Shown here one piece after another: positions 6,052 through 48,821 of a stretch of 53,548 bases of DNA. The notes beneath the pieces are model-generated. The model was not told the origin of the DNA. It did not search any database and saw nothing but the letters and a program-made list of their open reading frames with translations. Numbering within the stretch: the first letter of the stretch is position 1; each line of letters begins with the position of its first letter. The translations under genes and the position numbers were made by a program. This DNA comes from a virus (Duplodnaviria > Caudoviricetes), in the IMG/VR virus record IMGVR_UViG_3300048586_000904, positions 1 to 53,548 of that record; one strand, 5' to 3'.

Positions 6052-6876
6052 TTAGACCTCCACGACTTGGCTAAGGCTTGCTGTCGGTGCGTCGGGAACC
6101 TGGATGCGAATCGTCACCATTCCGTCGGTAGGTCTTCGCACTTGCAAGTCGTATTGCTGATCGCGAAGCAAGAGGAGCGAAACCAATCCATCCAAGTCCG
6201 TCGCCCCGATGGTGAGCGTATTGATGTTGAGCGTTTCGGCGACGATGGCGTAGCCTTTAGGAAATCTTGCATGCACAGGAATCTGCGCGAGAGAATTCCC
6301 GAATTGATCCGCCACATGAATGGTGACGACACAGGTCTCCGGTGTAGGGAGGAGTGCTGATGGAACCTGTGTTAACTCGATTTCCTGCTCGAGGTCTTCA
6401 TTGGTCACAGAGATGTTGATCTCGGGAATATCTTCATAGCCCGTGGGTGGGATGAAGCGGGCGGTGTAGAGATTGGGAGTGAGCCAGACTCGAGCAATCC
6501 CGGTTGTGTCACTGAACAGGGTTCGTCCTGCGATACGCACGGCGACGCCCGAGACCGGAACATCGTTCGCGACAAACTGAAATTCAATCTTGCGAATATC
6601 GGGTCCCGATGTGAGCGAGGAATCGTTGCCAATCTCAAAGCTAAATCGCGGATACAATCGACCGAAAAACTCCACCTCGCTGTCGAGCAATACATCGCAG
6701 CGATACTCGTCTTCGAGCAATGCTTCCTCGATGGTGGCTTCAAATCGTCCCGATGCAACGGGGGATTCGGTGAATGGATTTCCGCCGACGTTGACCAGTA
6801 GTCCGGCCAGCGTCCAGATTTGGAGAGTAAGATTTTCACCTGAGTAATCAGGTCGATGAAGAGTGATCTTGATCAT
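6052..6876 (-). CDS. Acidic beta-sandwich (Ig/carboxypeptidase-regulatory-like) virion-associated protein
   Basis: Two segments of the pattern PVSGVAVRI...SDTTGIA and SLAQIPVHA...TDLDGLV; ATGA overlap with the collagen gene. Confidence 0.55.
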
Positions 6877-9800
6877 CCTGCTGGCCCCGCTCTTCCTGTT
6901 TCAATCAAACGGTTACCGTTGGAAATAAAGGTGAGCGTGAAGGTCTTTCCAGCCACCGCCCCAGTATTCACAACCCCTGCAACGAAAAATTGGGAGGGAT
7001 TGAAGCTAACGGTCCGAGAGTTTGTGCCCTGAGATTCAATAATCAGGAAGCAAATCGTCCCGGCTGCCGGTACCGATGACGTCAAAGTCAAGGGTGCAGA
7101 TACGGGAAGCTGCACAACGGTAAAGGAAGCGAAGGGCATGGAGGTGCTGTTCGCGGTAAGTAAGCTGTAGCTGCCAGCAATGTGACCGGTGGTCTTTATT
7201 CCGGTGCTGTCGATTTTGAATCGTTCTGTGCCTTGGGTGAAGAATTGATGAAGTCCATTGACTCCCTGGGCGTCATAATAGGTTTGGCCCAGCATCAAAC
7301 CGTCACAAGATAGAACTAAACTGGTCGTGCCGCCTTTCATAAGGACGATGGCAGGGCGCGAGGCAGTGCTGGGTACGGTTTGATCGATGACCAATGTTGC
7401 GTTGTCTGAACTGTTGTTGTCCAATCTTGCAGCCGCAGCAGCGTTGGAACTCCGAACATGAAACCTCGCTAACGGCACTTCGGCGCCAACAGCGACGTTC
7501 CCGTTACCCGTGACTCGGAGTCTCTCGACGAAAATTCCATCACCAACGGCGTCGTTCAAGAGGATTGTGTTTCCTGCCCACGTTTGGATTCGAAATCCCT
7601 TGTTGGAATCGTCAGAGTCGCGAAGCGTAATGAAGGGCTGGAATCCCGTAACTCGCAGCCCGTCCTGACCGACCACATCGACCCGTGAGATCGGAATGGT
7701 CATGTTCACGCCAAAGTTGCCATCAGCCGTCATGACGAATTTGTCGGAATACGTTCCAGCGCCGGTGGTGTCCATGCTGTACGCTAGCGAGCTTCCGACC
7801 GCCTTCATCCGCACACCGGCCAAAAAAGCACTGTTATCGCGAAACGTCATGTACGGTTCAACACCGGTGATCCGCATACCATCCTGCCCCACGATATCCA
7901 ATTTGGATATGGGAGCGCTGGTGTTGATACCAACGCAGATGGTTATTGGATTGAAGACGAATCCGCTTGTTCCGCCAAAGTCCCCATCGTCGTTGAATTG
8001 AATATGAGTATTCGATCCACCCGGAGTACCACCGCCGACTCCGGGATCGCCTTGGTCACCTTTATCACCCTTGGGGCCAGGCGTCCCTTGGCGACCAATC
8101 GTGCCGACAATGAGGCTACCTAGCGAAGCCGCGATCACATCCGTCGAATTGACAGACGTTACACGCAAAGAAAGCACATCGTCTGGTGCAAGTTCGACGA
8201 GTGCCTCGGTTGATAGCTCGACAAGGTTCACAGCCGATGTTGTCGGTGATTCCTTCTCGGATGCGTTGATCGGGTTGCTGTTCTTATAGAAGATCACCCG
8301 AAGGATTCTGTTGGTGCCTTGCGTCAATACGATCGACGCATGCGCCTGCACTAGCAACGTATCGGTGCTCGTGTTCTTGACGGAAAGTCCCGACGTGCCT
8401 GCCGAGAAACCATTGGCTCCCGTTAAAAGATTGGGGGTACCTGATAGCGCGACATAATCACCGAAGCTAGGTGGAGCTCCTGCGCCGCTGGAGAGAGTCA
8501 CTTGGCCGAAGTAAGCGATGCCATCGCCATCAGCTCCGGCTGGTCCGGGGATACCTTGTGGACCTTGCGGTCCTTGAATGCCCTGGATGCCTTGCGGGCC
8601 TGTATCGCCGGTATCTCCCTTGGGACCGATTGGCCCTGGTTCGCCCTGGGGGCCTTGTGGACCGGTCGCGCCCGCAGGGCCAGCGGGGCCTGTTTCTCCC
8701 TGGATACCCTGAATGCCTTGCGGACCTGTTGCACCGGTCGGACCAGCAGGACCAATTTCGCCTTGGATGCCCTGCAATCCTTGTGGTCCCTGAGGACCAG
8801 TTGCTCCGGTCGGCCCTGTTGGGCCAGGCTCGCCTTGGATCCCTTGAAGGCCTTGCGGTCCGGTTTCACCTTGCGGGCCGGCTTCGCCTTGAGGTCCAAT
8901 CTCTCCCTGCAAACCTGGTTCACCCTGTGCTCCCGCGGGACCGATTGGTCCGGGATCTCCCTGGGGACCGATAGGACCAATAGGGCCCATGGGACCAATG
9001 TCACCGGTATCCCCTTTATCCCCTTTTGGACCTGGTGCTCCGGGCTCGCCTTGTTCACCCTGCGGACCGGCAGGCCCGGTCTCGCCTTGGATCCCCTGTG
9101 GGCCTGGTTCTCCTTGAGGGCCAACCTCTCCCTGCACACCTGGTTCGCCTTGAGGGCCGATGGGGCCAATAGGTCCTATGGGACCAATGTCACCTGCATC
9201 GCCTTTATCACCTTTGGGACCTGTCGGTCCGGGCTCGCCTTGGATGCCTTGAGGTCCTGGTTCTCCGGTATCTCCTTTATCTCCCTTCGGACCAGGTTCT
9301 CCTTGGATGCCTTGAGGACCAGGTTCTCCCTGACTACCCGTTGCACCGGTGTCCCCTTGGTCTCCTTTCGGTCCAGGCGGACCTTGGATGCCCTGTTCAC
9401 CTTGAACGCCCTGAATACCCTGTGGACCAATATCCCCGGTGTCACCTTTGTCCCCTTTGGGACCACGAATGGGACCGACGTTGTCCCACGTGGCTCCATT
9501 GAAGACGTAGCCATCGCCATCGGCTACGACGACATACAAATCCCCCGTGATTGGGTTAACGATGTCGCTCAAATCGGCAACTGTTGCAACGCTACCTTTG
9601 AGCGTCACGCTGGTACCGGGATCGCCCTTTGGACCTTGCTCACCGGTCGCACCGGGAATGCCTTGTGGCCCCTGAGGACCAATGGGACCGATCACTCCGG
9701 GATCACCTTTATCACCCTTGGGTCCAGGTTCGCCTTGGATTCCTTGTGGACCTGCTGGCCCTGCTTCACCCTGTATGCCTGGTTCACCGGGTGAGCCCGG

Positions 9801-10157
9801 CTCACCTTGAGGTCCCTGCGGCCCAACATCGCCTGCGTCACCTTTGGGGCCGACTGGTCCAGGCTCTCCTTGAATCCCCTGAACACCCTGTGGACCGGGT
9901 TCGCCCTGTGGGCCTGGTGGTCCTTCAACGGATAACTCCCATTCACGATCTTCGCTCAGATCAAAAGCGACGCCGTTGATGCTGAGCTCGCGAGACTTCG
10001 GAACATAGTTCTCCAAATCCGGAGGTAGAGGATTGATCTCCGCAGCGCTGAGTTGACCGTTTGGATCAATCCACAGGGGCATCGGTTCGTTCGGAAACTC
10101 CGCGAGTCCCCGCATCGCCTTGCCACCTCGAATTTTTTGCGCGTTGGTCGAGCTCAT
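6873..10157 (-). CDS. Collagen triple-helix repeat fibre protein
   Basis: Two long G-X-Y blocks ([14 protein letters not shown]...) and a short third block, a globular spacer, and three VG(I/V)N/G..P.S(K/R)L(D/H)V-type fibre repeats near the C-terminus. Confidence 0.9.
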
Positions 10158-10405
10158 GACTGCAATGGAACGTTGAGGATCTTGGCCAATTGAGAAACGG
10201 AACAGGCAATAGGCTTGGGGCGAACTGAAACCATCGGATTGAATTCCTCGGCTCGAAATGGTCTCCGACGTTTCTTTCGGTCGCGATTGATCTCGGCTAG
10301 GAGTGCCATCACATGACTTGCCAAGCTCCAGTCATGTTCTCGTTTGCCCCGAGCCATCCACACAAGCTCTCGCAACGTGAATGGCATGGGGTCGATCCCC
10401 ATCAC
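10154..10405 (-). CDS. Tail assembly chaperone, second (T-like) ORF
   Basis: Follows the chaperone G-like gene in the -1 frame, and that frame stays open upstream (…[15 protein letters not shown]…). Confidence 0.6.
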
Positions 10406-19025: not shown

Positions 19026-21296
19026 CTATTCAGTCCGACGCCGCTTTTGCATTGCAGAAAAGCTCATCCGTTCTTTACGAATCACGGCTTTACCATCGAC
19101 GTCAGGTAGGACCACACCTTGCATGGATGCCGCGACTGCAGTGCCAACCAGGCAATCGAACCAGTGGTTGTCGGGCTGCTCGGGTCGCTGCTTCCATTCG
19201 TTAACAATACGGCCACGAGCTTCGGTCTTAATAAAATACTCTGATGTCAATTGTTCCGAAAACATACGATGTGTTTCAACACTTGTTCCAAAGAGTGAAA
19301 GGCATCCACGATCCCCCATCGAAACGCGAAGCCGAGCATGAGTAAACGACTTCCACCAGTTGGTGTCGTAAATCACGTGTCGGATCGCTCGTTTGCCCTG
19401 AACGTTGGGGATGCGCCAGTTAAGACCAACCCTGTCGCCGGGGCGGCGTCGATACTCGCTGAACGGTTGACTTGAAGCTCCCACGAATCTCCCGTGGCTT
19501 GGCATGATCACAGCGGCATGTTTGGATTGCCTGCAGAACTGATAGACGACGTCCGTTGATTGGCCCCAGTTGGCGTCGATCAAACAGCGACCGATTCGCA
19601 TGGCAGCCCCATCGTCTCGTTGCCACTCTCGATCGAGTAGCTTGGATGTCAGCGATTCAAGGCCGGCGTAAATCGAACCTTCGAGCCCGGTTCCCATAGC
19701 CTCGGAGCCCAGCGTCTGCCGAGCTTCCCGTAATGTGAAGTACGGTCGCTGCTGATCAGGATAACAACCATAGTCGATGACGTATCCTGTGAAATCATCT
19801 TCCCATGCAGCGACCACATAGAAGAGTAGGCTTTGCTGGACGTCGATAAATGCGGAGAGGTTGTTTGCTCCGATGGAAACCAAGCCACGATCCAAGCGAT
19901 TGATCTTGCTTGCAACCTCTGCAGGTTTGAGCATCCCATCGCTAACCGTCTCGGTTGGCAGCGGTTGGTTCTGGTATTCTGCGAAGAACGCAGCTTCATC
20001 CTGAAGCTTGAGGTTCATAGCATGCTGGATTGCCGAAAGTTCATCGTAGTTAAATCGTTCCTGCCAAGCGACAACAGCGCCGTCATCCATAGCGGCTTGG
20101 TTCTGACGATAGAATTCGGTGGCTGCTTCACCACCATCACCACCTCGCATCCCTTCCGCGCGGATCTCGGCATAGCGTTCCCAAAGCATTTCGTTCTTTG
20201 GGAAGGAGTAAACCATCTTGGTTCGTTCCCCATTCCATTCGGGATGTCGATTGCGATCGAGGATATTGTCGGCCATGTCACCAGGGCGAATCACCGTGCA
20301 GGGCATGATGCCCGAGATCTTCTTCCCCGGACCAGCCAAACCGAGCACGGCACCGGCAAGGATGCTTTCCCGATTTGCGCATTGCGAAAGCGAACGCGCG
20401 CTCTCATCGGTTTGCGGATCATCGAGCACCACGAGGCTTGGACGGACCGTTCGACCGTCGGGGCGCTTGAACTTCATACCACGGATACGGCCAGTTAGGC
20501 CAGCGACCTTGATAATCGCACCGCTGGCACTGCTACCTTCGATGGTTGGCAGCACAACCTCTTTCGCTGTCCATCCGATCTGCGTGCGTTTGCCTTTGTA
20601 TAGCTGACCATTGGCGCGATTCGAAATTCCATCGAGTGCTTGGATCGGAAAGCAAACCTCGGGAAAGTCGGCTAAGAGCAATTCGTTACTATCGAGTTCG
20701 GTTTTGATCGAATCGAGCATGTCACAGGCGTGGCCTTCGTCGCTACCGATCAGACAGACGAAGTTCCGATGTCCGTAGAGCACCGCCCAGATACAAGCGA
20801 CTTCGGCTATCGACGATTTTCCACTGCCGCGTGCCATCGCTAAGGCAAACAATCCCCCATGCACAACGGCTTGTTCAATTTTGTTGATGACCTTGACATG
20901 GTCTGGAGACCACGCGAGGTGAAAGGTGAGTGGAAAGTACGTCTCGCAAAAGTACCTGAAGTCTCGCGATGCGCGATCTTTGCGATCGGGATTATCTACG
21001 CTGGGGAGTTCTCCGATGTCGCGTCCGGCAAGTGCGAGCGCTGCATTGCGTGCCCGAGCTCGCTCCTTCATCGCTTCGTACGAATCCACCCCTGAGTTTT
21101 GTTTGGGCGTATGGCGTACGGCATGCATCCAGGCGCAATAGCGAAGGAGATCGACCGTCTTGTTGTCACCGATACGGGCGCCGGCGCGTTGCCGATGACG
21201 ATACAACTGCCGCTCGCTGATCACCTCGCCTAGCGGCGTTGAGTTGAGCAGCCGGCATAGCTCACTTGGCTTTAGTTTTCGAGGATCACTCGCCAC
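19026..21296 (-). CDS. terL: Terminase large subunit (gpA-like nuclease domain) with an N-terminal HTH-like extension
   Basis: Walker A MARGSGKS, Walker B LVVLDD, AFIDVQ and DNHWFDC nuclease motifs. Confidence 0.9.
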   Translation of the reverse strand: MASDPRKLKPSELCRLLNSTPLGEVISERQLYRHRQRAGARIGDNKTVDLLRYCAWMHAVRHTPKQNSGVDSYEAMKERARARNAALALAGRDIGELPSVDNPDRKDRASRDFRYFCETYFPLTFHLAWSPDHVKVINKIEQAVVHGGLFALAMARGSGKSSIAEVACIWAVLYGHRNFVCLIGSDEGHACDMLDSIKTELDSNELLLADFPEVCFPIQALDGISNRANGQLYKGKRTQIGWTAKEVVLPTIEGSSASGAIIKVAGLTGRIRGMKFKRPDGRTVRPSLVVLDDPQTDESARSLSQCANRESILAGAVLGLAGPGKKISGIMPCTVIRPGDMADNILDRNRHPEWNGERTKMVYSFPKNEMLWERYAEIRAEGMRGGDGGEAATEFYRQNQAAMDDGAVVAWQERFNYDELSAIQHAMNLKLQDEAAFFAEYQNQPLPTETVSDGMLKPAEVASKINRLDRGLVSIGANNLSAFIDVQQSLLFYVVAAWEDDFTGYVIDYGCYPDQQRPYFTLREARQTLGSEAMGTGLEGSIYAGLESLTSKLLDREWQRDDGAAMRIGRCLIDANWGQSTDVVYQFCRQSKHAAVIMPSHGRFVGASSQPFSEYRRRPGDRVGLNWRIPNVQGKRAIRHVIYDTNWWKSFTHARLRVSMGDRGCLSLFGTSVETHRMFSEQLTSEYFIKTEARGRIVNEWKQRPEQPDNHWFDCLVGTAVAASMQGVVLPDVDGKAVIRKERMSFSAMQKRRRTE

Positions 21297-21492
21297 GGCC
21301 CATCTCCTTTGCTTGCCAAGCGCTATAGTTCACGAGGTTGATCGTGCCATCGGCGTTCGCGGGCGCACCTTCATGGAGATCACTTCGGATCTTCTCGGCA
21401 TCGATCCGTTCTCGGTAGGCAGCGGACAGAAGTTTCGCGGCTTGTTCGATCGAGAGTCTCGTCGGATCGACCGGCTGTTTGTCTTCACTCAT
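21286..21492 (-). CDS. Putative terminase small subunit / HTH DNA-binding protein
   Basis: 68 aa, SD GGAGGA, overlaps the terL start, and resembles the terL N-terminus. Confidence 0.65.
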   Translation of the reverse strand: MSEDKQPVDPTRLSIEQAAKLLSAAYRERIDAEKIRSDLHEGAPANADGTINLVNYSAWQAKEMGRGE

Positions 21493-21673
21493 CGCATTCC
21501 TCCGTGACTTGGTAGTTCAAAACGTGGGGCCACTGTTTGCGCCGTGTCGCGTTTCCCCATCCACTTCGCCTGGTTATGCGAAGCATGTTTGAACGCGACG
21601 GTGGCGTAATGTTGGGGCACCGGTGGCTTCTCGAAGAACATGCGAAATTGCTGGAAAAACATGATGCAATTCG

Positions 21674-21716
21674 CTGGATGATTCCTCTCCCGCAAGGCTT
21701 CATGTGTGTTGTCGCG
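21674..21716 (+). promoter_or_regulatory. Cassette promoter-like motif, copy 1
   Basis: CTGG-N14-GCAAGGCTTCATGTGTGT...CGCG upstream of the amidoligase gene. Confidence 0.55.
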
Positions 21717-21767
21717 ACGCGAAGAACGCGACGAAACACAAACCTTGCACCCCAGAGGAACATCACC

Positions 21768-22625
21768 ATGAATGCAAACGAAATTTTCTTTGGTCTGGAA
21801 TTTGAGACGACGCTTCCGAACAGTGACACCACACCAATCGGCCCCTACCACAACGGATACCAAGTCCCTTGGTTGCCAACCGGATGGAAAGCGGAACGCG
21901 ACGGTAGCATCCGCCCTGAGAGCCCATGCCGTAAAGGATGCGAGTTCGTAAGCCCCAAGCTCAAAGGTTACGGAGGCCTCAATGAAATCGAAGAAGCAAT
22001 CGACAAGATCAACGAGCACGGAGGAAAGGTAAATCAAAGCTGCGGCCTGCACATTTCGATCGAGTGGAATGGCGACGCAGCCGCCCTCGCACGGTTGATC
22101 TCCTTGGTTGGTAACCACGAGAAAGCGATTTTCGCTAGTACCGGAACACGCCGCCGCGAACAAACGATCTACACCAAGCAAATCAAGCAATACGGCGACA
22201 AAGACGCCGCGAAGAATCGATGTGAAGCGGATCGCTACCACCTGCTGAACCTTACCCACCTGGCCGCCGGTAGAAACCGAATCGAATTTCGGGCTTTTGC
22301 TGGAACGCTCAACAAAACCAAGGTGGCGGGATACCTGATGATGGTTTTGGGATTGGTAGAGTTGGCTTTGAGCACCAAACGCTGCAGCGATTGGGACTAC
22401 GTCAAGAAAGAGGGAGCAAAAAGCTGCTGGGACCGACCGGGCGCCGGCCTTGGGGAAACGGAACTCAACCGATTGTTCTACCGACTGGGGTGGACCAAGG
22501 GGTGGTATAAGGGCGCCCTTCGCGACAAGGTCTACGGAGAGATCGCAGGCGAGTCGAAACCAGATTGGAGAACCATAAAGGCAAAGCTCCTCGATCTTTC
22601 TAGGAAATACGACCGAGTCGCGTAG
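21768..22625 (+). CDS. Amidoligase family protein (Amidoligase_2-like COOH-NH2 ligase)
   Basis: GLEFET, ERDGSI, CEFVSPKL, SCGLHI, RYHLLNL and IEFR motifs; ATG at 21768 after AGAGGA. Confidence 0.85.
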   Translation: MNANEIFFGLEFETTLPNSDTTPIGPYHNGYQVPWLPTGWKAERDGSIRPESPCRKGCEFVSPKLKGYGGLNEIEEAIDKINEHGGKVNQSCGLHISIEWNGDAAALARLISLVGNHEKAIFASTGTRRREQTIYTKQIKQYGDKDAAKNRCEADRYHLLNLTHLAAGRNRIEFRAFAGTLNKTKVAGYLMMVLGLVELALSTKRCSDWDYVKKEGAKSCWDRPGAGLGETELNRLFYRLGWTKGWYKGALRDKVYGEIAGESKPDWRTIKAKLLDLSRKYDRVA

Positions 22626-22832
22626 ATCAAACACGACCGAAACCGAAGTCAACAAAGTTTTGGTTTCTCTTGATCCAAAACCTTGAGGCGAAAGCACGTC
22701 ACTTTCTTGGCGATTGGTGTATGTAACTAATGACGGCCTAAACCAAATCGCAACATCATGCGTCACGTTTTGCCGGAACGGACGCGACTCAGCGAAACAT
22801 TCAGTTTCTTCTTGGAATCCTCGCATGTTCGG

Positions 22833-22874
22833 CTTGAGGTTATGCAAACCGCATGGCTCCATGGTGTCATCGCG
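22833..22874 (+). promoter_or_regulatory. Cassette promoter-like motif, copy 2
   Basis: CTTG-N14-GCATGGCTCCATGGTGT...CGCG. Confidence 0.55.
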
Positions 22875-22913
22875 TAAACGATTCGAAACCGAGTTCCCAA
22901 CGAAGACACAAAC

Positions 22914-23171
22914 ATGACCAACGCAAGCAACCAACACGCAGCAACCGACGCGACCCTTCGCCAAATCTTCAAGGCGATGGACGCCCACCAAGCCCAAGAG
23001 ATCCGCGAAGCCTATTACAAGGCAATCGAGGGATTGATGACCTTGGCAGAAGCCCTCGAAGTCGCTGACGCACAACAAACCCCCAGCGCCGGCCCGCTTC
23101 TCACCGAACACTTCCACGCCGTCCAAGCGTTGGACGCCATGAAGAACAGCCGCCTCGGCAAGATCCTCTAA
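22914..23171 (+). CDS. Small helical hypothetical protein
   Basis: 85 aa with natural composition, downstream of promoter motif 2. Confidence 0.75.
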   Translation: MTNASNQHAATDATLRQIFKAMDAHQAQEIREAYYKAIEGLMTLAEALEVADAQQTPSAGPLLTEHFHAVQALDAMKNSRLGKIL

Positions 23172-23201
23172 ACCCCAGAACATAACGAAGGAGAAATCAA
23201 C

Positions 23202-23459
23202 ATGAAGCTCGACACCTTGATCGAAATCTTGAACGACTACCGCGAAGAGTTCGGAGGCGACGCGGAAGTGCGATTGATGACCCAACAAAACTGGCCCTTT
23301 GAGAACCGTATTTGCGGCGTAACGAGCGGGCGCGACATGAACGAAACGGATGAGGACGATGACCAAGATGTCGCCGACGACCAAACGGTTTACATCGTCG
23401 AAGGGGGACAAATCTGCTACGGCAGCAAGAGGGCTTGGGAAAACTACAAGGATAGCTGA
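23202..23459 (+). CDS. Small acidic hypothetical protein
   Basis: 85 aa, SD AAGGAG, EVRLMTQQNWPFE and YIVEGGQICYG segments. Confidence 0.8.
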   Translation: MKLDTLIEILNDYREEFGGDAEVRLMTQQNWPFENRICGVTSGRDMNETDEDDDQDVADDQTVYIVEGGQICYGSKRAWENYKDS

Positions 23460-23465
23460 ACGCAC

Positions 23466-23705
23466 ATGTACATCGGGCAACTTCATTTGGTAACCGACCT
23501 CGAAGACGGAGATCGTGCCTATCCAGAGGCGAACGTCTCGTACGAAATCGAATCGATTGACGACTCTTCGCTCAATACGACCGTCGCGTATGTCGAGCGA
23601 CGAGGGAATCGGCTGATTGCAAGAGGATGCAACGGACGGGATTACGCCGTCTCGGGCTTCGATGGTTACGAACTTTACGCGGTTCGAAAGCCGCCACAGC
23701 GATGA
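23466..23705 (+). CDS. Small hypothetical protein
   Basis: 79 aa, 6 nt after the previous gene and followed by a terminator. Confidence 0.65.
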   Translation: MYIGQLHLVTDLEDGDRAYPEANVSYEIESIDDSSLNTTVAYVERRGNRLIARGCNGRDYAVSGFDGYELYAVRKPPQR

Positions 23706-23724
23706 TGATTGCCCGCTTCGCGAC

Positions 23725-23761
23725 AACGCCCCACGTTTGCGACGTGAGGGCGTTCTTTTTT
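23725..23761 (+). terminator. Intrinsic terminator
   Basis: AACGCCCCACGT-TTGCG-ACGTGAGGGCGTT hairpin followed by CTTTTTT. Confidence 0.75.
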
Positions 23762-23873
23762 CGATTGGCGTCATTTCCCCCAGATGCAATGCGACGCGAC
23801 TGTGGCCAAACGGTTGCGATTGTGGGGCTCGGAAACATTCTTCAAAAAAGCATCGAACTACTTTTTGAATTGC

Positions 23874-23915
23874 CTTGCTGTTTATCAACGTGCATGGCTC
23901 ATGTGTGTATACGCG
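23874..23915 (+). promoter_or_regulatory. Cassette promoter-like motif, copy 3
   Basis: CTTG-N14-GCATGGCTCATGTGTGT...CGCG. Confidence 0.55.
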
Positions 23916-23951
23916 AAAGCGAATTGATAACCCAAACGAAGAGATGCATAG

Positions 23952-24266
23952 ATGACTCACCACGACCTCGACCTGACGCTTACCAAGATCAGCCACCGAA
24001 CCCCTGGGGCTGGAGGTTCTTGGGTCCAAGGGAAGATCAACAACGAATACCGATTCGATGCCCTGGTCTTCTCGGAGCACGCGGAATGCGAATCGTACGA
24101 ATTGGGAAGAAGCAAGATTTCGAAGCTTTGGATCCAACGCCTTTCCGATCGCGCGGTGATGTTCAACTTCGACCGCGGGTTGGATGTCGCGGCGGTCAAC
24201 ACCGAGGTTCAGGTGGTGGTTGATTTTCTTTGCGAAGGACTCTCCGACTTGGTCTTTGGTCAATAA
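23952..24266 (+). CDS. DUF7678-like phage protein
   Basis: WVQGKI...SKISKLWI...FNFDRGLDV pattern. Confidence 0.7.
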   Translation: MTHHDLDLTLTKISHRTPGAGGSWVQGKINNEYRFDALVFSEHAECESYELGRSKISKLWIQRLSDRAVMFNFDRGLDVAAVNTEVQVVVDFLCEGLSDLVFGQ

Positions 24267-24335
24267 GCCGAAACGCGGAGAGGATCCGCGTCGCCGATCG
24301 GTGGTTCGATCGGCCTGACGATGGCAGCCAACCAC
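24267..24335 (+). ncRNA. Type II hammerhead ribozyme
   Basis: GCC-GAAA-CGCGGA(gagga)TCCGCG-TC-GCCGATCG(gtggtt)CGATCGGC-CTGACGA-T-GGC. All core nucleotides and three stems are present, and loop GTGGTT is complementary to AACCAC at 24330-24335. Confidence 0.9.
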
Positions 24336-24359
24336 GAACATGAACACAAGGTGATCAAG

Positions 24360-24944
24360 ATGAAGAAGGCAGACGTAAAGATCGGCGGTAAGTATTTCGC
24401 GAATGTTTCCGGCAACCGATGTGAGATCCGAATCGATGCGGAGAAACCGCGTGGCGGATGGGATGCTACGAATCTGGCCACAGGCAAGAAGATTCTTATC
24501 AAAAGCGCACAGCGTCTTCAGGGGGAGGTGACGACGCGAGCCGGCCAAGCCAAGGTGACCACCGAGGGAAATGTCACCGTGGTCGAGAATGAGCCGGCAA
24601 CTGTCGAATCGTTCGGGGAGACTGCGACCAAGGTGGCCGTTCTGAAGAAGCCTCGTAAAGCCAAACCAGCTGCAACCGAATCGGCGGCGGCCGAATCGAA
24701 GACGAGTGGCAAAAAGCGAATGAGCTGCATCGAAGCGGCATTGAAGGTCCTCTCCGAATCGGCTGAACCCATGAACACGCAACAGATGATTGCCGCTATG
24801 GAAGCGAAGGGGTACTGGACGAGCCCGGGAGGAAAAACTCCTCACGCGACCCTCTACAGCGTGATCCTTCGCGACTTGGCTAAAGGCGATTCGAGCCGGT
24901 TTGTAAAAGCCGAACGCGGACGCTTTACGGTTTCCAACAAATAA
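24360..24944 (+). CDS. Protein with a C-terminal winged HTH (HARE-HTH-like)
   Basis: AALKVL...PMNTQQMI...GKTPHATLYS...RFVKAERGRF; likely start at ATG 24360. Confidence 0.8.
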   Translation: MKKADVKIGGKYFANVSGNRCEIRIDAEKPRGGWDATNLATGKKILIKSAQRLQGEVTTRAGQAKVTTEGNVTVVENEPATVESFGETATKVAVLKKPRKAKPAATESAAAESKTSGKKRMSCIEAALKVLSESAEPMNTQQMIAAMEAKGYWTSPGGKTPHATLYSVILRDLAKGDSSRFVKAERGRFTVSNK

Positions 24945-24962
24945 GCCGAAGGCGATGCAATC

Positions 24963-25181
24963 ATGCGAATTCGATTGAAGAGAGGCGACCGCATACGGTT
25001 GGTCTCGATGCCTGATGATCCCGATCCAATCCCGGTCGGGATGCTTGGAACCGTCACCGAGGTTCATGAGCATCGAGACTGGATGCAGGTCGAGGTCGAT
25101 TGGGACAACGGCCGCTCCCTGATGTTGACCCTTCCCGATGACTGCATTGAGATCATCGATTCCCAGAACTCCGAATTCTGA
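24963..25181 (+). CDS. DUF4314 family protein
   Basis: GDRIRLVSMPDDPDPIPVGMLGTV...VDWDNGRSLML pattern. Confidence 0.85.
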   Translation: MRIRLKRGDRIRLVSMPDDPDPIPVGMLGTVTEVHEHRDWMQVEVDWDNGRSLMLTLPDDCIEIIDSQNSEF

Positions 25182-25193
25182 AGGGACCACACC

Positions 25194-25511
25194 ATATCGA
25201 CGCGAGCAACGATTGCCCATTCCGATAGCGATGGGAGTTACCACGCTACGTACCTGCATTTCGATGGATACCAAGACCACGCCGGCAGAGTCCTCTAAGA
25301 ACATTACACATCTATCGAGTCGGCATGAACGTTGGTCGTAGGCGGCGACATTCGTCCGGTCGCTAACGATGGAATGCCCGAACGATTCACCGACCGCAAC
25401 CGCGCGGTTGTCATGCCTACTCGCGCAGCCTTGCATGAATTCGCTAGGAACTGCGGAGCGGAATACATCTATGTCTTCGAGGACGAGTCTTGGCATTGTC
25501 ATAAGCGGTGA
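25194..25511 (+). pseudogene. Decayed phage hypothetical gene (xSTRATI...YLHFDGY...EYIYVF family)
   Basis: ATA in place of the start codon, in-frame TAA at 25296 and TGA at 25326, natural stop at 25509-25511, no frameshift. Confidence 0.7.
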
Positions 25512-25521
25512 TCGCGACCTC

Positions 25522-26919
25522 CTATCGCATGTTTTCCTCGCGCACTTTCATTGCGATTGGTGATTCGCCGGTTCGCTCAAGGATTGCTGGCTTGCCTGTA
25601 AACCTTTGGTACCTATCAACAATTACGTCAGCGTAAAGGCAATCGAGTTCCATCAAGAAGGCGTTCCGACCGCATTGCTCGGCGCCGATCAAGGTCGAGC
25701 CACTTCCACCAAACAAATCGAGAACATTCTCGCCAGGCACGGAAGAGTACTGCATCGCTCGCACCGCGAGCTCCACTGGCTTTTCGGTGAGGTGGATCAT
25801 CGATTGCGGATTGACCTTCTTCACTTGCCACAGATCGGTTGCATTGTTAGGTCCGTAGTACTTGTGGCCCGCCCCTTCCTTCCAACCGTAGAACGCCCAC
25901 TCATGCGCGCCCATAAAATCCTTCCGAGTCAAAACGGGGTGCTGCTTGTCCCAAATGATCGATTGGGAGAAATACAAACCATGCTTGGCAAGGAATGGTG
26001 GATAGTTACCACAGTTGGCGTAGCCTCCCCAAATGTAGAAGCAACGACCGGGCAAAAGTACGCGTGCGATGTTCCCAAACCACGCATCGAGCAATCGATC
26101 GAACTCGTTGTCGCTGACAAAGTCATTCGCGAGGGGACGATCCTTGGGCCGAAGCTTCTTATGCGTTGCAGCGTGCTTCGGTTTCCCCGTCTCATGATCG
26201 ACGCCAAAGGAAGCAGCGTTCCCTTGTCCTTGCTTGAGTTTTCCTGACGCGGCGTCGTTGGTAAACGAAGACAAACCGGCCGCGATCGCGTTGTTCGATC
26301 GAGGTTCCACCTTCACATTGTAGGGTGGGTCTGTGTTGCAAAGATGAATTGCATTGCCGGCCAACAAGCGATCCAGATCAGCAGGACTCGAGGAATCGCC
26401 ACAGAGCAATCGATGATTTCCGAGGATCCAAAGATCCCCTGGCTTAGTGATCGCAGCATCTGGAGGTTCCGGGATTTTATCGGGATCGGTCAAGCCTTCG
26501 TTGACTCCGGTATCCATCAGCTTCGCAAGTTCCTCCGCGTTGAACCCAAGCAACCCGAGGTCGTAGTTCGCTTCCTGTAATGCCGACAATTCGATCGGCA
26601 ACAGATCATAATTCCAGTCCGCGATCTCAGCGGTCTTGTTATCTGCGATGCGATACGCTCGAACTTGCTCTGGCGACAGGTGCGCCGCTACAACAACGGG
26701 GACCCGATCCAGCCCGAGCTTCTGCGCGGCTTTCAATCGCGTATGGCCAACGATGATGACGCTGTCGCTATCAACCACCAATGGCTGCGCGAAGCCGAAT
26801 TCCTTGATCGATGCTGCGACTGCGTCAACGGCTTTATCGTTGTTGCGCGGGTTGTTTTCGTAGGGACGAACTCGATCGAGGGTCCACATTTCAATCTGCA
26901 AAGCATTGATGGTTGACAT
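25522..26919 (-). CDS. ParB-N-terminal + N6/N4 DNA methyltransferase fusion
   Basis: ParB motifs PYENNPR, GHTR and YRIADNK; MTase motifs TDPPYN, HLTEKPV and DLFGGSGST. Confidence 0.92.
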   Translation of the reverse strand: MSTINALQIEMWTLDRVRPYENNPRNNDKAVDAVAASIKEFGFAQPLVVDSDSVIIVGHTRLKAAQKLGLDRVPVVVAAHLSPEQVRAYRIADNKTAEIADWNYDLLPIELSALQEANYDLGLLGFNAEELAKLMDTGVNEGLTDPDKIPEPPDAAITKPGDLWILGNHRLLCGDSSSPADLDRLLAGNAIHLCNTDPPYNVKVEPRSNNAIAAGLSSFTNDAASGKLKQGQGNAASFGVDHETGKPKHAATHKKLRPKDRPLANDFVSDNEFDRLLDAWFGNIARVLLPGRCFYIWGGYANCGNYPPFLAKHGLYFSQSIIWDKQHPVLTRKDFMGAHEWAFYGWKEGAGHKYYGPNNATDLWQVKKVNPQSMIHLTEKPVELAVRAMQYSSVPGENVLDLFGGSGSTLIGAEQCGRNAFLMELDCLYADVIVDRYQRFTGKPAILERTGESPIAMKVREENMR

Positions 26920-44877: not shown

Positions 44878-45890
44878 CAGGAGCTCTCTCGATCGTTCTT
44901 TTTGTTCCGTTTTAGCTCTTGCTCAATATTTTCAATCTCGCGTAGATCTTCCGAATCAGCTGCAGCGGCCTCGGTGATCCGGCGCTGAGCATCGAATGCT
45001 TCGTAGCGTTCGTACGCAATCCGAGTCATATCCTCGCGGCTTACTTTTCCAGGGCCATCTAATACTGGCTTGTCATTAAAACGAAGTAAGTCGTCCACGT
45101 TCTTTCGCCAGAACTCCAGCGTCAGATCCTTACGCTGCTTAACCCGTAGTTCGGCCTGCTCGAGGAAGATGACAACCAAGCGATTCAGCGTGTCGATCTC
45201 ATCCTCGGTCAAATAGTTCTTGGCTATGATTACATCGTGCTTACGAACTCGACTGCCACTCCAATTCGTCAGCGACATGTTCGCCTCATCTGGATTAGCA
45301 CGGCTGACAATGATTTCAGCCGCTGTTTGGCCAGTCGCCGCGAAGTGCAGCTTGTTCTGAACCTCGGCAAAGAAAATCTGCGTGGAGGAATCGTCGGCCG
45401 CGTAGTCGCTGCTGAGCGCAAACAGCTCCCGGACTTTTTGGTAGAAACGCTTCTCGGAGGCTCGAATCTCGCGAATGCGTGCCAGCAGCTCGTCGAAGTA
45501 ATCCCAGCCCTTCGGGTCTTTCAGTCGCTGGTCATCCATCACGAATCCCTTGACCAGGAATTCCCGCAGGTGCGTCGTGGCCCACTGGCGAAACTGCGTG
45601 CCACGCGGGGAGCGAACTCGATAGCCAATCGCCAGGATCAGGTCCAAATTGTAGAGTTTTGTCGAGTATTTCTTGCCGTCTGCGGCAGTTGTCAAGGATT
45701 CCTTGACAACTGAAACCTCTCGTAACTCCCCCTCTTCCAGGATGTTCTTGGCGTGTAGGGATACATTCTGCTTAGAGGTTTGAAACAGCTCGGCAATCTC
45801 AAGCTGGGTCAACCAGATGGTTCCTTCCTCGACGCGCAGATGCATCTGCGTAGCGCCATCCTCCGAGGTAAACAGAATCAGCTCGCTCAT
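44877..45890 (-). CDS. RhuM-family (virulence RhuM) protein
   Basis: WLTQLEIAELF, YNLDLILAIGYRVRSPRGTQFRQWAT, IRASEKRFY and AKNYL motifs. Confidence 0.9.
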   Translation of the reverse strand: MSELILFTSEDGATQMHLRVEEGTIWLTQLEIAELFQTSKQNVSLHAKNILEEGELREVSVVKESLTTAADGKKYSTKLYNLDLILAIGYRVRSPRGTQFRQWATTHLREFLVKGFVMDDQRLKDPKGWDYFDELLARIREIRASEKRFYQKVRELFALSSDYAADDSSTQIFFAEVQNKLHFAATGQTAAEIIVSRANPDEANMSLTNWSGSRVRKHDVIIAKNYLTEDEIDTLNRLVVIFLEQAELRVKQRKDLTLEFWRKNVDDLLRFNDKPVLDGPGKVSREDMTRIAYERYEAFDAQRRITEAAAADSEDLREIENIEQELKRNKKNDRESS

Positions 45891-48709
45891 TTCTTGCCTT
45901 TCCCCTTTCCGGTCATTTCCGTATAGAGCTGGAAGAGCGTTTCGAGCCGTTCGGTGTCGTTCTTGAAGCGGCGGCCGATGTAGATGCGTTCGAGCGTTTC
46001 GTCATTCCGATCGTGAGCGGCTCGAAGGTCTTCCGGCATCTGATCGGGATCGTAAAGGTCCGCGATCGTCGAAGGCCAGTGGGCTTCGCGAGCGAGAAGG
46101 ATGTTTTCTGCACAGCGACTTAGATCTGCTCTGTTCTCGTCGGTAAGAGGAGGAACAGGAAACGTATTCCAGCCTAAAACATTTGAGAAACGATAGTCCG
46201 TCTTGAACTTTCCACAAACGGTTGCGATCCAAACAAAGTGCAGTTTGGAATTCAGTAACGCGATAGCATCCAGCGATGGATAATACATAGCAAATGCAAG
46301 ATTCGTTATGATGCTTCCGGGAGGCAGCAAACCAGTCGGAATGTATTCCCTGTTTTCAGACGTCAGCGTCGGAATCAATGCGATGCGTTCATCTCCAGAC
46401 TGCTTTACCTCATCAAAACGATGGGGTGTGACTGCGGCTTTTCTCGTCGCAGCTTTCGGGCTGTTGCTCCGCATTTCTGCGACTGCATTTATTCTCGATT
46501 CGATGGCCGGAATCGAACGCGCTAAATCGACATCATCGTCGGATATCCAAAGACAATGGCGAACTTTTCCATTGGTATACTCATCCGCTCCATAGACTCT
46601 CAATACAAAGTCGGTTGCCGCTGGGTCGGCAAGCTGTAATCTACGCTTAGCGTCCACACTGATCAGAAGATGGCCACCATCGACCGGTTTTCCACCAGCG
46701 TCGACCACTGAAACTCTGCTGATAGGCTCCCTGCGCTTCTCAACAATTACATCCTCTGCCGGAACAAGATAGGCGTTTATGTTTGTAACGACTCTCGCGT
46801 TGTCTTCACCATTGTCTCCGATAGAGTAGAGGATCTTTGGCCGTGTGAGAGATTTTGCAAGGCCCACGATGATCACAGTCACGCCGGCGTTGTGCGAAGC
46901 CAAATTAGCCCACTTAAATGATGTGTGGGCAAAAGCAATTTGGTGAGAGTGTCTTTGGATGAGCGGCCAGAGCAGCGACACCTGCTGTCCTTGGCAAATT
47001 GAATTGGTCGCCACAAACGCGGTTACGGTTTCGGTCGACTTTCCGTATTCAACTGCCTTCATGAACCAGCCAGCAACGTAATCGAGTGATTTCCACTGGT
47101 TAGTTCGACTTGCAAAAACTTGTTGCAAGTCATCTTTTTGGTTCTTCGTTTGCCAAGTCGATCCGAGATACGGCGGGTTGCCACAGATATATGTCTCCCC
47201 TCCTTCGTTCTCGAAATCGATCTCAGTTTGATCGAGCGGCGTTTGGAAAAGATCATCCTCAACTAGTTTGACGCCGCCTTTTCCTGTCGGCGGACAAACC
47301 TTCAACCAATCCAAACGAAGTGCGTTGCCGTGGGTGATCCAGTTCTCTTTATTGAGAGGCAGGAACTCTGCAAGCGCTAGGCGTTGGCCTCGATACAGTT
47401 CGTCGCATTGGTACTCGGCGATGATGAGTGCCAAGCGAGCAATTTCAACTGCGAAGTGCCTTAGTTCGATGCCGCGAAAGTTGGTGAGCGGAATTTCTGA
47501 GGCCCGATCCGGCTCTCCCCGCAGGATATTGATCTCGGCTTCAATTTTGCGCATCTCTTTGTACGCAATCACCAGAAAGTTGCCGCTTCCGCAAGCCGGA
47601 TCGAAGACGCGAATGCGAGCCAATCGCTTGCGAAGATTGAGTAGCTTACGCGGATTCTTGCCTGCTTCCTTCAGTTGAGCATGCAGATCATCAAGGAACA
47701 GAGGATTCAAGACCTTTAAGATGTTCGGCACGCTCGTGTAGTGCATGCCCAAAGCGCCACGCTCCTCGTCGTCAGCAACAGCCTGAATCATCGAGCCAAA
47801 TATGTCGGGATTGATCTGTGTCCAATCGAGCGAGCCAATGTGCAGCAGGTAAGACCGTGCAATCTGCGTGAACTTTGGAACCGTGCCTCCTTCGGAAGTC
47901 GAGCTGTTACTTCCAAACAATCCACCATTGACGTAAGGGAACTGGCCTGCCCATGGACGCAGTTTGGCCGCGTCGCGTGCTTTCATCGGCACATCCATAG
48001 CGCGGAAGATTTCGGCAAGAACAAAGTCCGTGTTCTCACCGCTCGGGTCGCTCATCTGGCGAACGGTCTCGGTAAAGAGCGCGTTGCCGTTGAAGATCCC
48101 GGTATCTTCCGCGAAGAAGCAGAAAATCAATCTCGCGAAGAAATGGTTGAGCTCTTCCCGACGTTCGTCCCCGTCCCAGTCTGGATTGTTGCGTAGCAGT
48201 TCAACGTACAAGCGATTCAGTCGCCCTGTGGCCTTGATATCGAAGGCGTTCTCGCGGATCTGCCGAACGGTCGAGATCCCAGCAAGCTCCAGGAAGTAAC
48301 CAAAGTGGTCAGCCAGCTCCTTGAACTCGCACACCAAGGGCTGCTCTTCGGAGTTCAGGCACTCCGCGTGAACCGTATTCCCATCCGTTGCCAGCGCGAA
48401 CTTCGCTTTGTGTTTGCTTGAAGCAGGGCTGTCAACAAGACGCTTTAGTAGGTTAGCGACAGCGTCGGCGCCACCGGTGCCACCCGCAGAGCACGTGGCG
48501 ATGTGAATGTTATTCCGCTGAAGGACGGCATGAATTCCTTCGCCGACGATGTCCGTCTTATTCGTCGAATTCTTTCCGACGCTGCGTAGTCGCTGAAGGG
48601 TCGCAGTCTTGTTGCCGAACGCCTCCAACAAAGCGTACGAGAACTCGGCCGCGTTGAACGGCTCTTCGACCAGCTTACTGACTGCTTCTTCGATCTCGAC
48701 CGCGTTCAA
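45887..48709 (-). CDS. YeeA/MmeI-like N6-adenine DNA methyltransferase with target-recognition domain
   Basis: FPYVNGGLF, GMHYT, FDPACGSGNFL and GNPPY motifs; TTG start after GGAG. Confidence 0.9.
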   Translation of the reverse strand: MNAVEIEEAVSKLVEEPFNAAEFSYALLEAFGNKTATLQRLRSVGKNSTNKTDIVGEGIHAVLQRNNIHIATCSAGGTGGADAVANLLKRLVDSPASSKHKAKFALATDGNTVHAECLNSEEQPLVCEFKELADHFGYFLELAGISTVRQIRENAFDIKATGRLNRLYVELLRNNPDWDGDERREELNHFFARLIFCFFAEDTGIFNGNALFTETVRQMSDPSGENTDFVLAEIFRAMDVPMKARDAAKLRPWAGQFPYVNGGLFGSNSSTSEGGTVPKFTQIARSYLLHIGSLDWTQINPDIFGSMIQAVADDEERGALGMHYTSVPNILKVLNPLFLDDLHAQLKEAGKNPRKLLNLRKRLARIRVFDPACGSGNFLVIAYKEMRKIEAEINILRGEPDRASEIPLTNFRGIELRHFAVEIARLALIIAEYQCDELYRGQRLALAEFLPLNKENWITHGNALRLDWLKVCPPTGKGGVKLVEDDLFQTPLDQTEIDFENEGGETYICGNPPYLGSTWQTKNQKDDLQQVFASRTNQWKSLDYVAGWFMKAVEYGKSTETVTAFVATNSICQGQQVSLLWPLIQRHSHQIAFAHTSFKWANLASHNAGVTVIIVGLAKSLTRPKILYSIGDNGEDNARVVTNINAYLVPAEDVIVEKRREPISRVSVVDAGGKPVDGGHLLISVDAKRRLQLADPAATDFVLRVYGADEYTNGKVRHCLWISDDDVDLARSIPAIESRINAVAEMRSNSPKAATRKAAVTPHRFDEVKQSGDERIALIPTLTSENREYIPTGLLPPGSIITNLAFAMYYPSLDAIALLNSKLHFVWIATVCGKFKTDYRFSNVLGWNTFPVPPLTDENRADLSRCAENILLAREAHWPSTIADLYDPDQMPEDLRAAHDRNDETLERIYIGRRFKNDTERLETLFQLYTEMTGKGKGKK

Positions 48710-48821
48710 CCGTTCGCTCCATCAATTGGGTGATTCTGAGAAATGACCTCCAAGCATGGCCACATGTTGCCTGCAAGCTGCTACAATCCTACAATGCTAG
48801 CCTCACTGGAACAAGCAGGGA

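Follow-up and report, generated by a model that had tools for sequence, protein, structure and literature searches.

The locus and its genes

The window described here is the whole of one IMG/VR provirus record, a stretch of 53,548 nucleotides. Within it, the genes for a DNA methyltransferase and for the large terminase subunit are both read from the minus strand, and they flank a block of small genes, here termed the cassette, that is read from the plus strand. Behind the terminase gene are found lambda-type portal, capsid, tape-measure and collagen-like fibre genes. On the minus strand, exactly under the plus-strand block, lies the longest open frame of the record (21489-25547), and a short RNA element of the hammerhead type separates two of the cassette genes. 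The features of this region are:

19026-21329, minus strand: large terminase subunit frame, stop to stop (Pfam GpA_nuclease; PHROG terminase large subunit)
21286-21492, minus strand: 68-codon ORF upstream of the large terminase gene (no Pfam match)
21489-25502, minus strand: codon-aligned antisense frame, 1337 codons from ATG 25502 (4,056 nt from stop to stop)
21537-25511, plus strand: cassette in a single shared frame, with amidoligase_2, three small genes, DUF7678, HARE-HTH, DUF4314 and one more gene
23952-24266, plus strand: DUF7678 gene (Pfam PF24726, E 8.6e-15), whose stop TAA at 24264-24266 abuts the ribozyme
24266-24333, plus strand: type II hammerhead (extent of the RF02276 match; our own model R1 gives 99.6 bits over 24262-24338)
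24360-24944, plus strand: HARE-HTH gene, 194 aa (Pfam PF05066, E 1.4e-11)
25522-26919, minus strand: ParB-N / N6_N4 DNA methyltransferase gene (Pfam/PHROG)

The coding of the plus frame throughout the cassette is confirmed by its substitution pattern. In loci where homologues of both the terminase and the methyltransferase are recognised, the orientation of the cassette relative to these two genes is constant. An invertible cassette was considered, and no convincing flanking inverted repeats were found. Recoding of stop codons in the plus frame was rejected as well, since TAA, TAG and TGA are all represented among its 20 in-frame stops. Elsewhere in the provirus record there is a complete MmeI-family type IIL restriction-modification gene (45887-48721, minus strand), which carries all five MmeI Pfam domains.

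A type II hammerhead ribozyme in the cassette

The stretch at 24266-24335 on the plus strand is very probably a functional type II hammerhead ribozyme of a lambda-like prophage of the Pirellulaceae (Planctomycetota). Its placement between the DUF7678 stop and the HARE-HTH start, as given by the first-pass annotation of this DNA, is confirmed from the sequence, and all of the parts listed there were found in place when the letters were read directly. On the plus strand, these parts are:

24267-24269: 5' strand of stem II, GCC, paired with GGC at 24323-24325 (read from the sequence)
24270-24273: core GAAA (G12, A13, A14, A15.1), invariant in 72 of 72 relatives
24274-24290: stem III hairpin, CGCGGA at 24274-24279 and TCCGCG at 24285-24290, with loop GAGGA
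24290-24292: GUC, the triplet at the cut site (by the hammerhead rule, scission is predicted to fall between C24292 and G24293)
24293-24314: stem I hairpin of 8 bp, GCCGATCG at 24293-24300 and CGATCGGC at 24307-24314, with loop GUGGUU at 24301-24306
24315-24321: core CUGACGA (C3-A9), read from the sequence; CUGANGA is kept in relatives
24322: extra U between A9 and G10.1, aligned by Rfam as an insertion
24326-24330: 3' tail AGCCA, proximal pseudoknot partner of loop positions 24302-24306 (covariation; published type II definition)
24330-24335: AACCAC, distal partner of the loop, exclusive with the proximal pairing (perfect complement in the window)

The Rfam Hammerhead_II model (RF02276), which the first-pass annotation had named among its checks, matches 24266-24333 on the plus strand with 50.8 bits (E 1.4e-7), where the gathering score is 37, and the match is full-length over model positions 1-66. 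This is the sole Rfam family above its gathering score in the entire record. When the whole window is searched at E <=5, only mir-680 and SNORD10 are added, both at chance level, and no second hammerhead is found. The window contains the core residues of the type II layout together with C11.1, a triplet of the NUH type, and the A15.1-U16.1 pair that closes stem III; this pair (A24273-U24291) extends the six base pairs of the stem by one. The assignment to type II is backed by the Rfam score, by the pattern of core and NUH residues, and by the covariation described below.

The MFE fold of 24260-24340 is exactly the three-way junction, and its energy is modestly unusual (z -1.85; 7 of 200 shuffles are as good). 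When longer downstream context is included, the MFE fold pairs the 5' strand of stem I (24293-24299) with coding sequence at 24380-24386 (AAGATCGGCGG), which could be an alternative fold or a coincidence.

Conservation and covariation among relatives

Related loci were collected with protein queries and with a genome scan. The downstream protein yielded 80 viral-contig loci and the upstream protein 33 more, while the genome scan yielded 80 loci, nearly all of them in Planctomycetota. The genome of Pirellulaceae bacterium SH501 contains several loci, one of which encodes a HARE-HTH protein that is 100% identical. At the same spot, Hammerhead_II scores above the Rfam cut-off in 15 of 17 related loci tested, and the remaining two are recovered by our own covariance model, R1, which was built from 16 of these sequences and whose E-values are rough. 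With R1 there are 60 matches at E <=1e-9 in 84 viral-contig sources and 51 matches in 80 genome loci from named Planctomycetota. These 111 hammerhead instances represent 73 distinct sequences.

Base pairing was counted in 72 distinct full-length copies. In this alignment, which is fitted to the model and so biased towards structure, standard pairs occupy 94.1% of cells, compared to 81.2% after the columns are shuffled and 28-47% after the partners are slid. Changes on both sides of a pair are seen in 173 cells compared to 61 in shuffles, a number that none of 500 shuffles reached. In stem I, 99.6% of cells are paired and both-side changes occur at six of the eight pairs. In stem III, both-side changes occur at six of seven pairs, and the A-U pair formed by A15.1 and U16.1 is kept in 72 of 72 copies. 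Stem II is invariant in 71-72 of the 72 distinct relatives and is thus uninformative for covariation.

The catalytic residues are conserved in the same relatives. Like GAAA, C11.1 is present in all 72, and CUGANGA is present in 70. The cleavage triplet is GUC in 34 relatives, GUA in 17, AUC in 11 and GUU in 10, all of which conform to NUH, so that position 17 is C in 45, A in 17 and U in 10, and is never G. In two copies, L139 and L081, CUGANGA is changed to CCGAUGA and CUGAGAU, and these hammerheads may be decayed copies.

In a sample of Pirellulaceae, 15 of 101 genomes have at least one match above the cut-off, with 1-4 copies each, and whole-genome searches of five Planctomycete genomes gave 0-4 matches each. 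Some single Planctomycete genomes hold two to four related copies of cassette and hammerhead (L115-L117/L176; L158/L161/L166; G001-G004), which suggests several related prophages or prophage-like elements in one host. A second recurrent motif about 1.1-1.6 kb upstream in relatives was set aside, as it scores below the Rfam cut-off in the loci tested.

The loop-tail pseudoknot

Loop I can pair in two mutually exclusive ways, either proximally (24302-24306 with 24326-24330) or distally (24301-24306 with 24330-24335). The first-pass annotation had described a pseudoknot between the loop and the tail in the distal register, with AACCAC as partner. The existence of a pseudoknot is upheld by the covariation of the proximal pairing, and the AACCAC register has less support. 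Across relatives, the proximal pairing is formed in 90.6% of cells, and pair 24303:24329 changes from G:C to A:U in six distinct relatives, which is the only clear compensatory change. The distal pairing is formed in 84.7% of cells, mostly by way of one-sided changes from G-C to G-U, and shows no comparable compensation. Moreover, relatives with a changed third loop base can no longer form it, and AGCCA is retained in tail variants that destroy AACCAC. The canonical proximal register is the better supported of the two.

In most type II members, loop I is reported to form a pseudoknot with the residues that directly follow stem II (PMC3088659). Mutation and rescue experiments described in the same paper show that fast cleavage requires this pseudoknot (Perreault et al. 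2011, PMC3088659), and type II hammerheads that possess it are described there as cleaving fast at 0.5 mM Mg2+.

The extra nucleotide in the core

U24322 is absent from the Rfam consensus. Of 71 distinct relatives whose core is intact, 70 have a nucleotide at this place (U in 69 and C in one). A literature search for an extra residue between A9 and G10.1 found no paper. Some core insertions are reported to lower hammerhead activity (Perreault et al., PMC3088659), and the element might accordingly be seen as a decayed or very slow relic, in which catalysis is crippled by the U inserted behind A9 and the fold persists for another reason, for example as stabilising hairpins or as a protein-binding site. 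Such a relic would suit a core that has one nucleotide more than the Rfam consensus, and CUGANGA is indeed mutated in two of 72 relatives. However, what nearly all of the relatives retain is the insertion itself, and the invariant catalytic residues, together with the NUH rule at position 17, form the pattern of a working ribozyme and not of mere hairpins. Natural active hammerheads are also known that carry an extra residue at this very position, as in the chrysanthemum chlorotic mottle viroid. Decay of the ribozyme to a relic is therefore considered quite unlikely.

Linkage to the HARE-HTH gene

The partner of the ribozyme is the gene behind it, irrespective of the gene upstream: at least 68 of 72 distinct copies lie directly upstream of a HARE-HTH homologue, whereas a DUF7678 homologue is found upstream of only 30 of 73 distinct copies. 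In three distant relatives the hammerhead does not precede a HARE-HTH gene (L058:5905-5988, L064:5737-5828 and L171:6656-6722). These three sit behind a 302-codon frame, which in L058 is an amidoligase gene, and the L058 hammerhead is followed downstream by a small ORF and then by a glutamine amidotransferase gene.

Two in-frame start codons are available to the HARE-HTH gene. Public protein sets contain, from one annotation pipeline, a 207-aa form that begins at ATG 24321. If this were the true start, the conservation of the stretch would be that of an N-terminal extension of the protein. This is very improbable on several grounds. The ATG at 24321-24323 lies inside the ribozyme core, where its three letters are A9, the extra U and G10.1. 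The changes in the helices are compensatory, and the lengths of the ribozyme range from 71 to 95 nt and differ by non-multiples of three. Distant homologues of the protein align only from residue 14. At the second ATG, 24360, the gene is preceded by a Shine-Dalgarno-like AAGGTG (24348-24353), and the start MKKADVKIGG with a GGAG-type site upstream is conserved across relatives. Judged from these features, the true start is ATG 24360 and not ATG 24321. The distance of 67 nt between the cut site and the HARE-HTH start, as first annotated, holds for this ATG.

Proposed action of the ribozyme

During transcription of the plus-strand cassette, stems III and I would fold, after which the 3' tail would close stem II and pair with loop I in the proximal register, so that stems I and II could dock. 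The cassette mRNA would then cut itself between C24292 and G24293. The upstream message would end at the stem III hairpin with a 2',3'-cyclic phosphate, and the 5'-OH end of the HARE-HTH message would lie directly at the 8-bp stem I hairpin, at a distance of 67 nt from the start codon and 55 nt from the ribosome-binding site. In this way, the message for HARE-HTH and the genes that follow may be uncoupled from the upstream gene and given a fixed, context-free 5' end. Since the ribozyme is linked to its downstream gene whatever lies upstream, its role is probably at the 5' end of that message. A 5'-OH end protects against 5'-end-dependent RNase E, yet is a target of RNase J1 in Bacillus. Cleavage of the cassette mRNA may raise or lower its stability, and it may affect translation.

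Assembled contigs from four RNA-library runs contain fragments from relatives that correspond to 24112-24394 and 24263-24336. These contigs carry neither strand nor ends, and a contig that spans the cut site could be DNA, antisense RNA or uncut RNA. Between 20900 and 27300, one promoter-like site is found compared to 3.5 expected, in a consensus scan that does not include the promoters of this phylum, and 12 terminator-like sites are found compared to 8.8 expected. In a review, the purpose of hammerheads in bacteria and phages is called unresolved, and it is suggested that such ribozymes split polycistronic RNAs into pieces that differ in stability or translatability (PMC6765202). The role proposed here at the 5' end of the message is in keeping with this suggestion.

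The open frame opposite the cassette

The first-pass annotation had also pointed to an antisense ORF that stays open across the ribozyme. This frame is real and under selection, in that it lacks any codon complementary to a stop and is open in relatives as well. On the plus strand, the stops of the antisense frame would appear as the codons TTA, CTA and TCA. None of these is present among 1,352 in-frame codons, compared to 177 among 9,203 (1.9%) in 14 other large ORFs of the provirus. For the 971 codons of the cassette genes this means zero where about 19 are expected. The 277 in-frame codons of the spacers also contain none, despite a frequency of 2.9% for the same three triplets among all trinucleotide positions there. 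Other codons are used normally in the cassette. A general avoidance of A-ending or TA codons was rejected, as the cassette does contain GTA and ATA and its share of other A-ending codons is 18.6%, compared to 17.6% in the control.

The antisense frame reaches up to 6.2 kb in viral-contig relatives. Over the ribozyme it is open for at least 1.5 kb in 61 of 73 distinct relatives and for at least 3 kb in 38 of 73, and 10 of 50 long genome loci have it open over the entire interval between recognisable methyltransferase and terminase homologues. In some lineages, it has one or few stops or is lost. The next-longest open frame of this kind in the record is a 1.3-kb frame (8448-9794, plus strand) antisense to the collagen-repeat fibre gene (6873-10331, minus strand), where openness is expected from the repeat composition.

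Both ends of the frame resemble the junctions of an operon. At its start, an AGGAGG overlaps the methyltransferase stop and lies 15 nt before the antisense ATG 25502, a spacing that is longer than usual. At its end, the TGA overlaps the ATG of the 68-codon ORF (ATGA), with a GGAGGA 5 nt upstream of this ATG. An ATGA or GTGA overlap is found at 29 of 59 distinct frame ends, and an ORF of at least 50 codons starts within 12 nt of the frame end in 33 of 59. The antisense start reads ATG ACA ATG (25500-25508, minus strand), which is complementary to the codons for a conserved C-terminal His-Cys-His in the last plus-strand gene, and similar starts recur in several relatives.

In 54 of 68 cases the two genes that flank the ribozyme share a phase, compared to the third of cases expected by chance; the relatives are kin, so that the counts are not independent, and in at least two of the cases counted, one of them the window, the upstream ORF was wrongly chosen. 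Twelve of the in-phase cases differ in the length class of the ribozyme. The earlier proposal was that the ribozyme stretch is doubly constrained. The antisense frame does constrain the length and phase of the spacer. For the ribozyme sequence itself the constraint is weak: in the window, all three frames of its complement are free of stops, and among 73 distinct relatives 67 have two or three such frames. The ribozyme sequence thus pays little, and the constraint falls on spacer length.

What the antisense frame may be for

Relatives differ from one another in roughly half of their sense codons. Among the 3,185 codons that differ, 2,025 changes are silent when read in the sense frame and 318 when read in the antisense frame, so that the cassette genes change in the way of normal genes. 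The methyltransferase gene, which has no such antisense frame and serves as control, gives 1,293 sense-synonymous and 132 antisense-synonymous codons among 1,723. The antisense-synonymous share is close to that of the control, which means that the amino acid sequence of the product is not conserved and only its openness is. The product has no Pfam or PHROG match, and the exact protein is absent from a collection of 15 billion sequences.

It could be supposed that the frame is a meaningless chance product of codon usage, given that codon-aligned antisense frames are the easiest to keep open and that neither a family match nor an exact copy of the protein was found. This is hardly tenable, however, in view of the complete absence of TTA, CTA and TCA from a cassette whose other codons are normal, their absence even from spacers where the triplets are frequent in other registers, and the single frame that all cassette genes have in common. 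It would also leave unexplained why most relatives keep the frame open while about half of their sense codons differ. At the other extreme, the frame could be a true overlapping gene for a functional giant protein, and its operon-like placement, with AGGAGG before the ATG and a stop that overlaps the next start, as well as the recurrence of ATGA or GTGA overlaps at frame ends, would fit this. It is nevertheless unlikely, since selection against stops is found in the frame and purifying selection on its amino acids is not, with antisense-synonymous changes near the methyltransferase control. In addition, the gene content beneath the frame varies among relatives, and one or few in-frame stops are tolerated in some lineages.

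It is quite possible, although we put this forward tentatively, that the antisense frame is a translated bridge, which keeps ribosomes on the late minus-strand transcript as it crosses 1.5-6 kb of antisense genes. Its purpose might be, for example, escape from Rho-dependent termination, from attack by RNases or from pairing with the cassette mRNA. On this reading, translation and not the protein made would be under selection. It would also force all cassette genes and their spacers, including the spacer with the ribozyme, into one phase.

Relation to known systems

The ribozyme is similar to the type II hammerheads of RF02276 described in 2011, in a paper that already covers the family, its pseudoknot and its prophage setting (PMC3088659). 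Like these, it has the hammerhead core, an open stem II of 2-3 bp, capped stems I and III, and a pseudoknot with loop I, and its tail AGCCA is the consensus tail motif of RF02276. It differs from the Rfam type II consensus in the conserved extra U between A9 and G10.1. Its hosts are prophages of Planctomycetota, and the string "Planctomyc" does not occur in the main text of PMC3088659, whose supplements may list examples. A literature search for papers that combine hammerhead ribozyme, Planctomycetes and prophage found none.

Known prophage hammerheads also flank genes; three surround ardA in Agrobacterium tumefaciens, and in Legionella one precedes this gene (PMC3088659). As in those cases, the present element is intergenic among small accessory genes of a prophage, lies directly before one gene, and is presumed to cut a message. 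However, its partner is a HARE-HTH gene and the block is read against the structural genes, and in contrast to clustered prophage hammerheads there is a single copy per locus (in the window at E <=5 and in 15 of 17 relatives). A phage hammerhead as such is ordinary, and what is new here is the conserved core insertion and the host group.

Insulators of the RiboJ type are engineered from type III satellite-RNA hammerheads; they strip upstream context from the 5' leader and leave a hairpin at the new 5' end. In comparison, the present element is natural and of type II, and it may act as an insulator of the 5' leader in the same sense.

The antisense frame resembles antisense overlapping genes, such as the embedded ORFs of E. 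coli and asp of HIV-1, in being a stop-free ORF opposite known genes. In the published descriptions drawn on here, each of those ORFs is confined to one gene, and the case is made that it encodes a protein. The present frame, on the other hand, spans eight or more in-phase genes with their spacers, links two flanking genes of the opposite strand, and lacks amino acid conservation. The literature consulted contains single-gene antisense overlaps and no multi-gene antisense bridge, which may still be in print.

Significance

The element adds a phylum-wide, single-copy, gene-linked type II hammerhead for the cultivable Pirellulaceae. As a ribozyme tied to one gene, it offers a clean system in which to test the effect of cleavage on a downstream message. 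The antisense context matters more than the ribozyme, as a frame of 4-6 kb is kept open over eight or more in-phase genes. If this frame is translated, it would represent a new way for a phage to carry a gene block of the opposite strand inside an operon, and it would mean that translation as such, and not the protein product, can be the selected trait.
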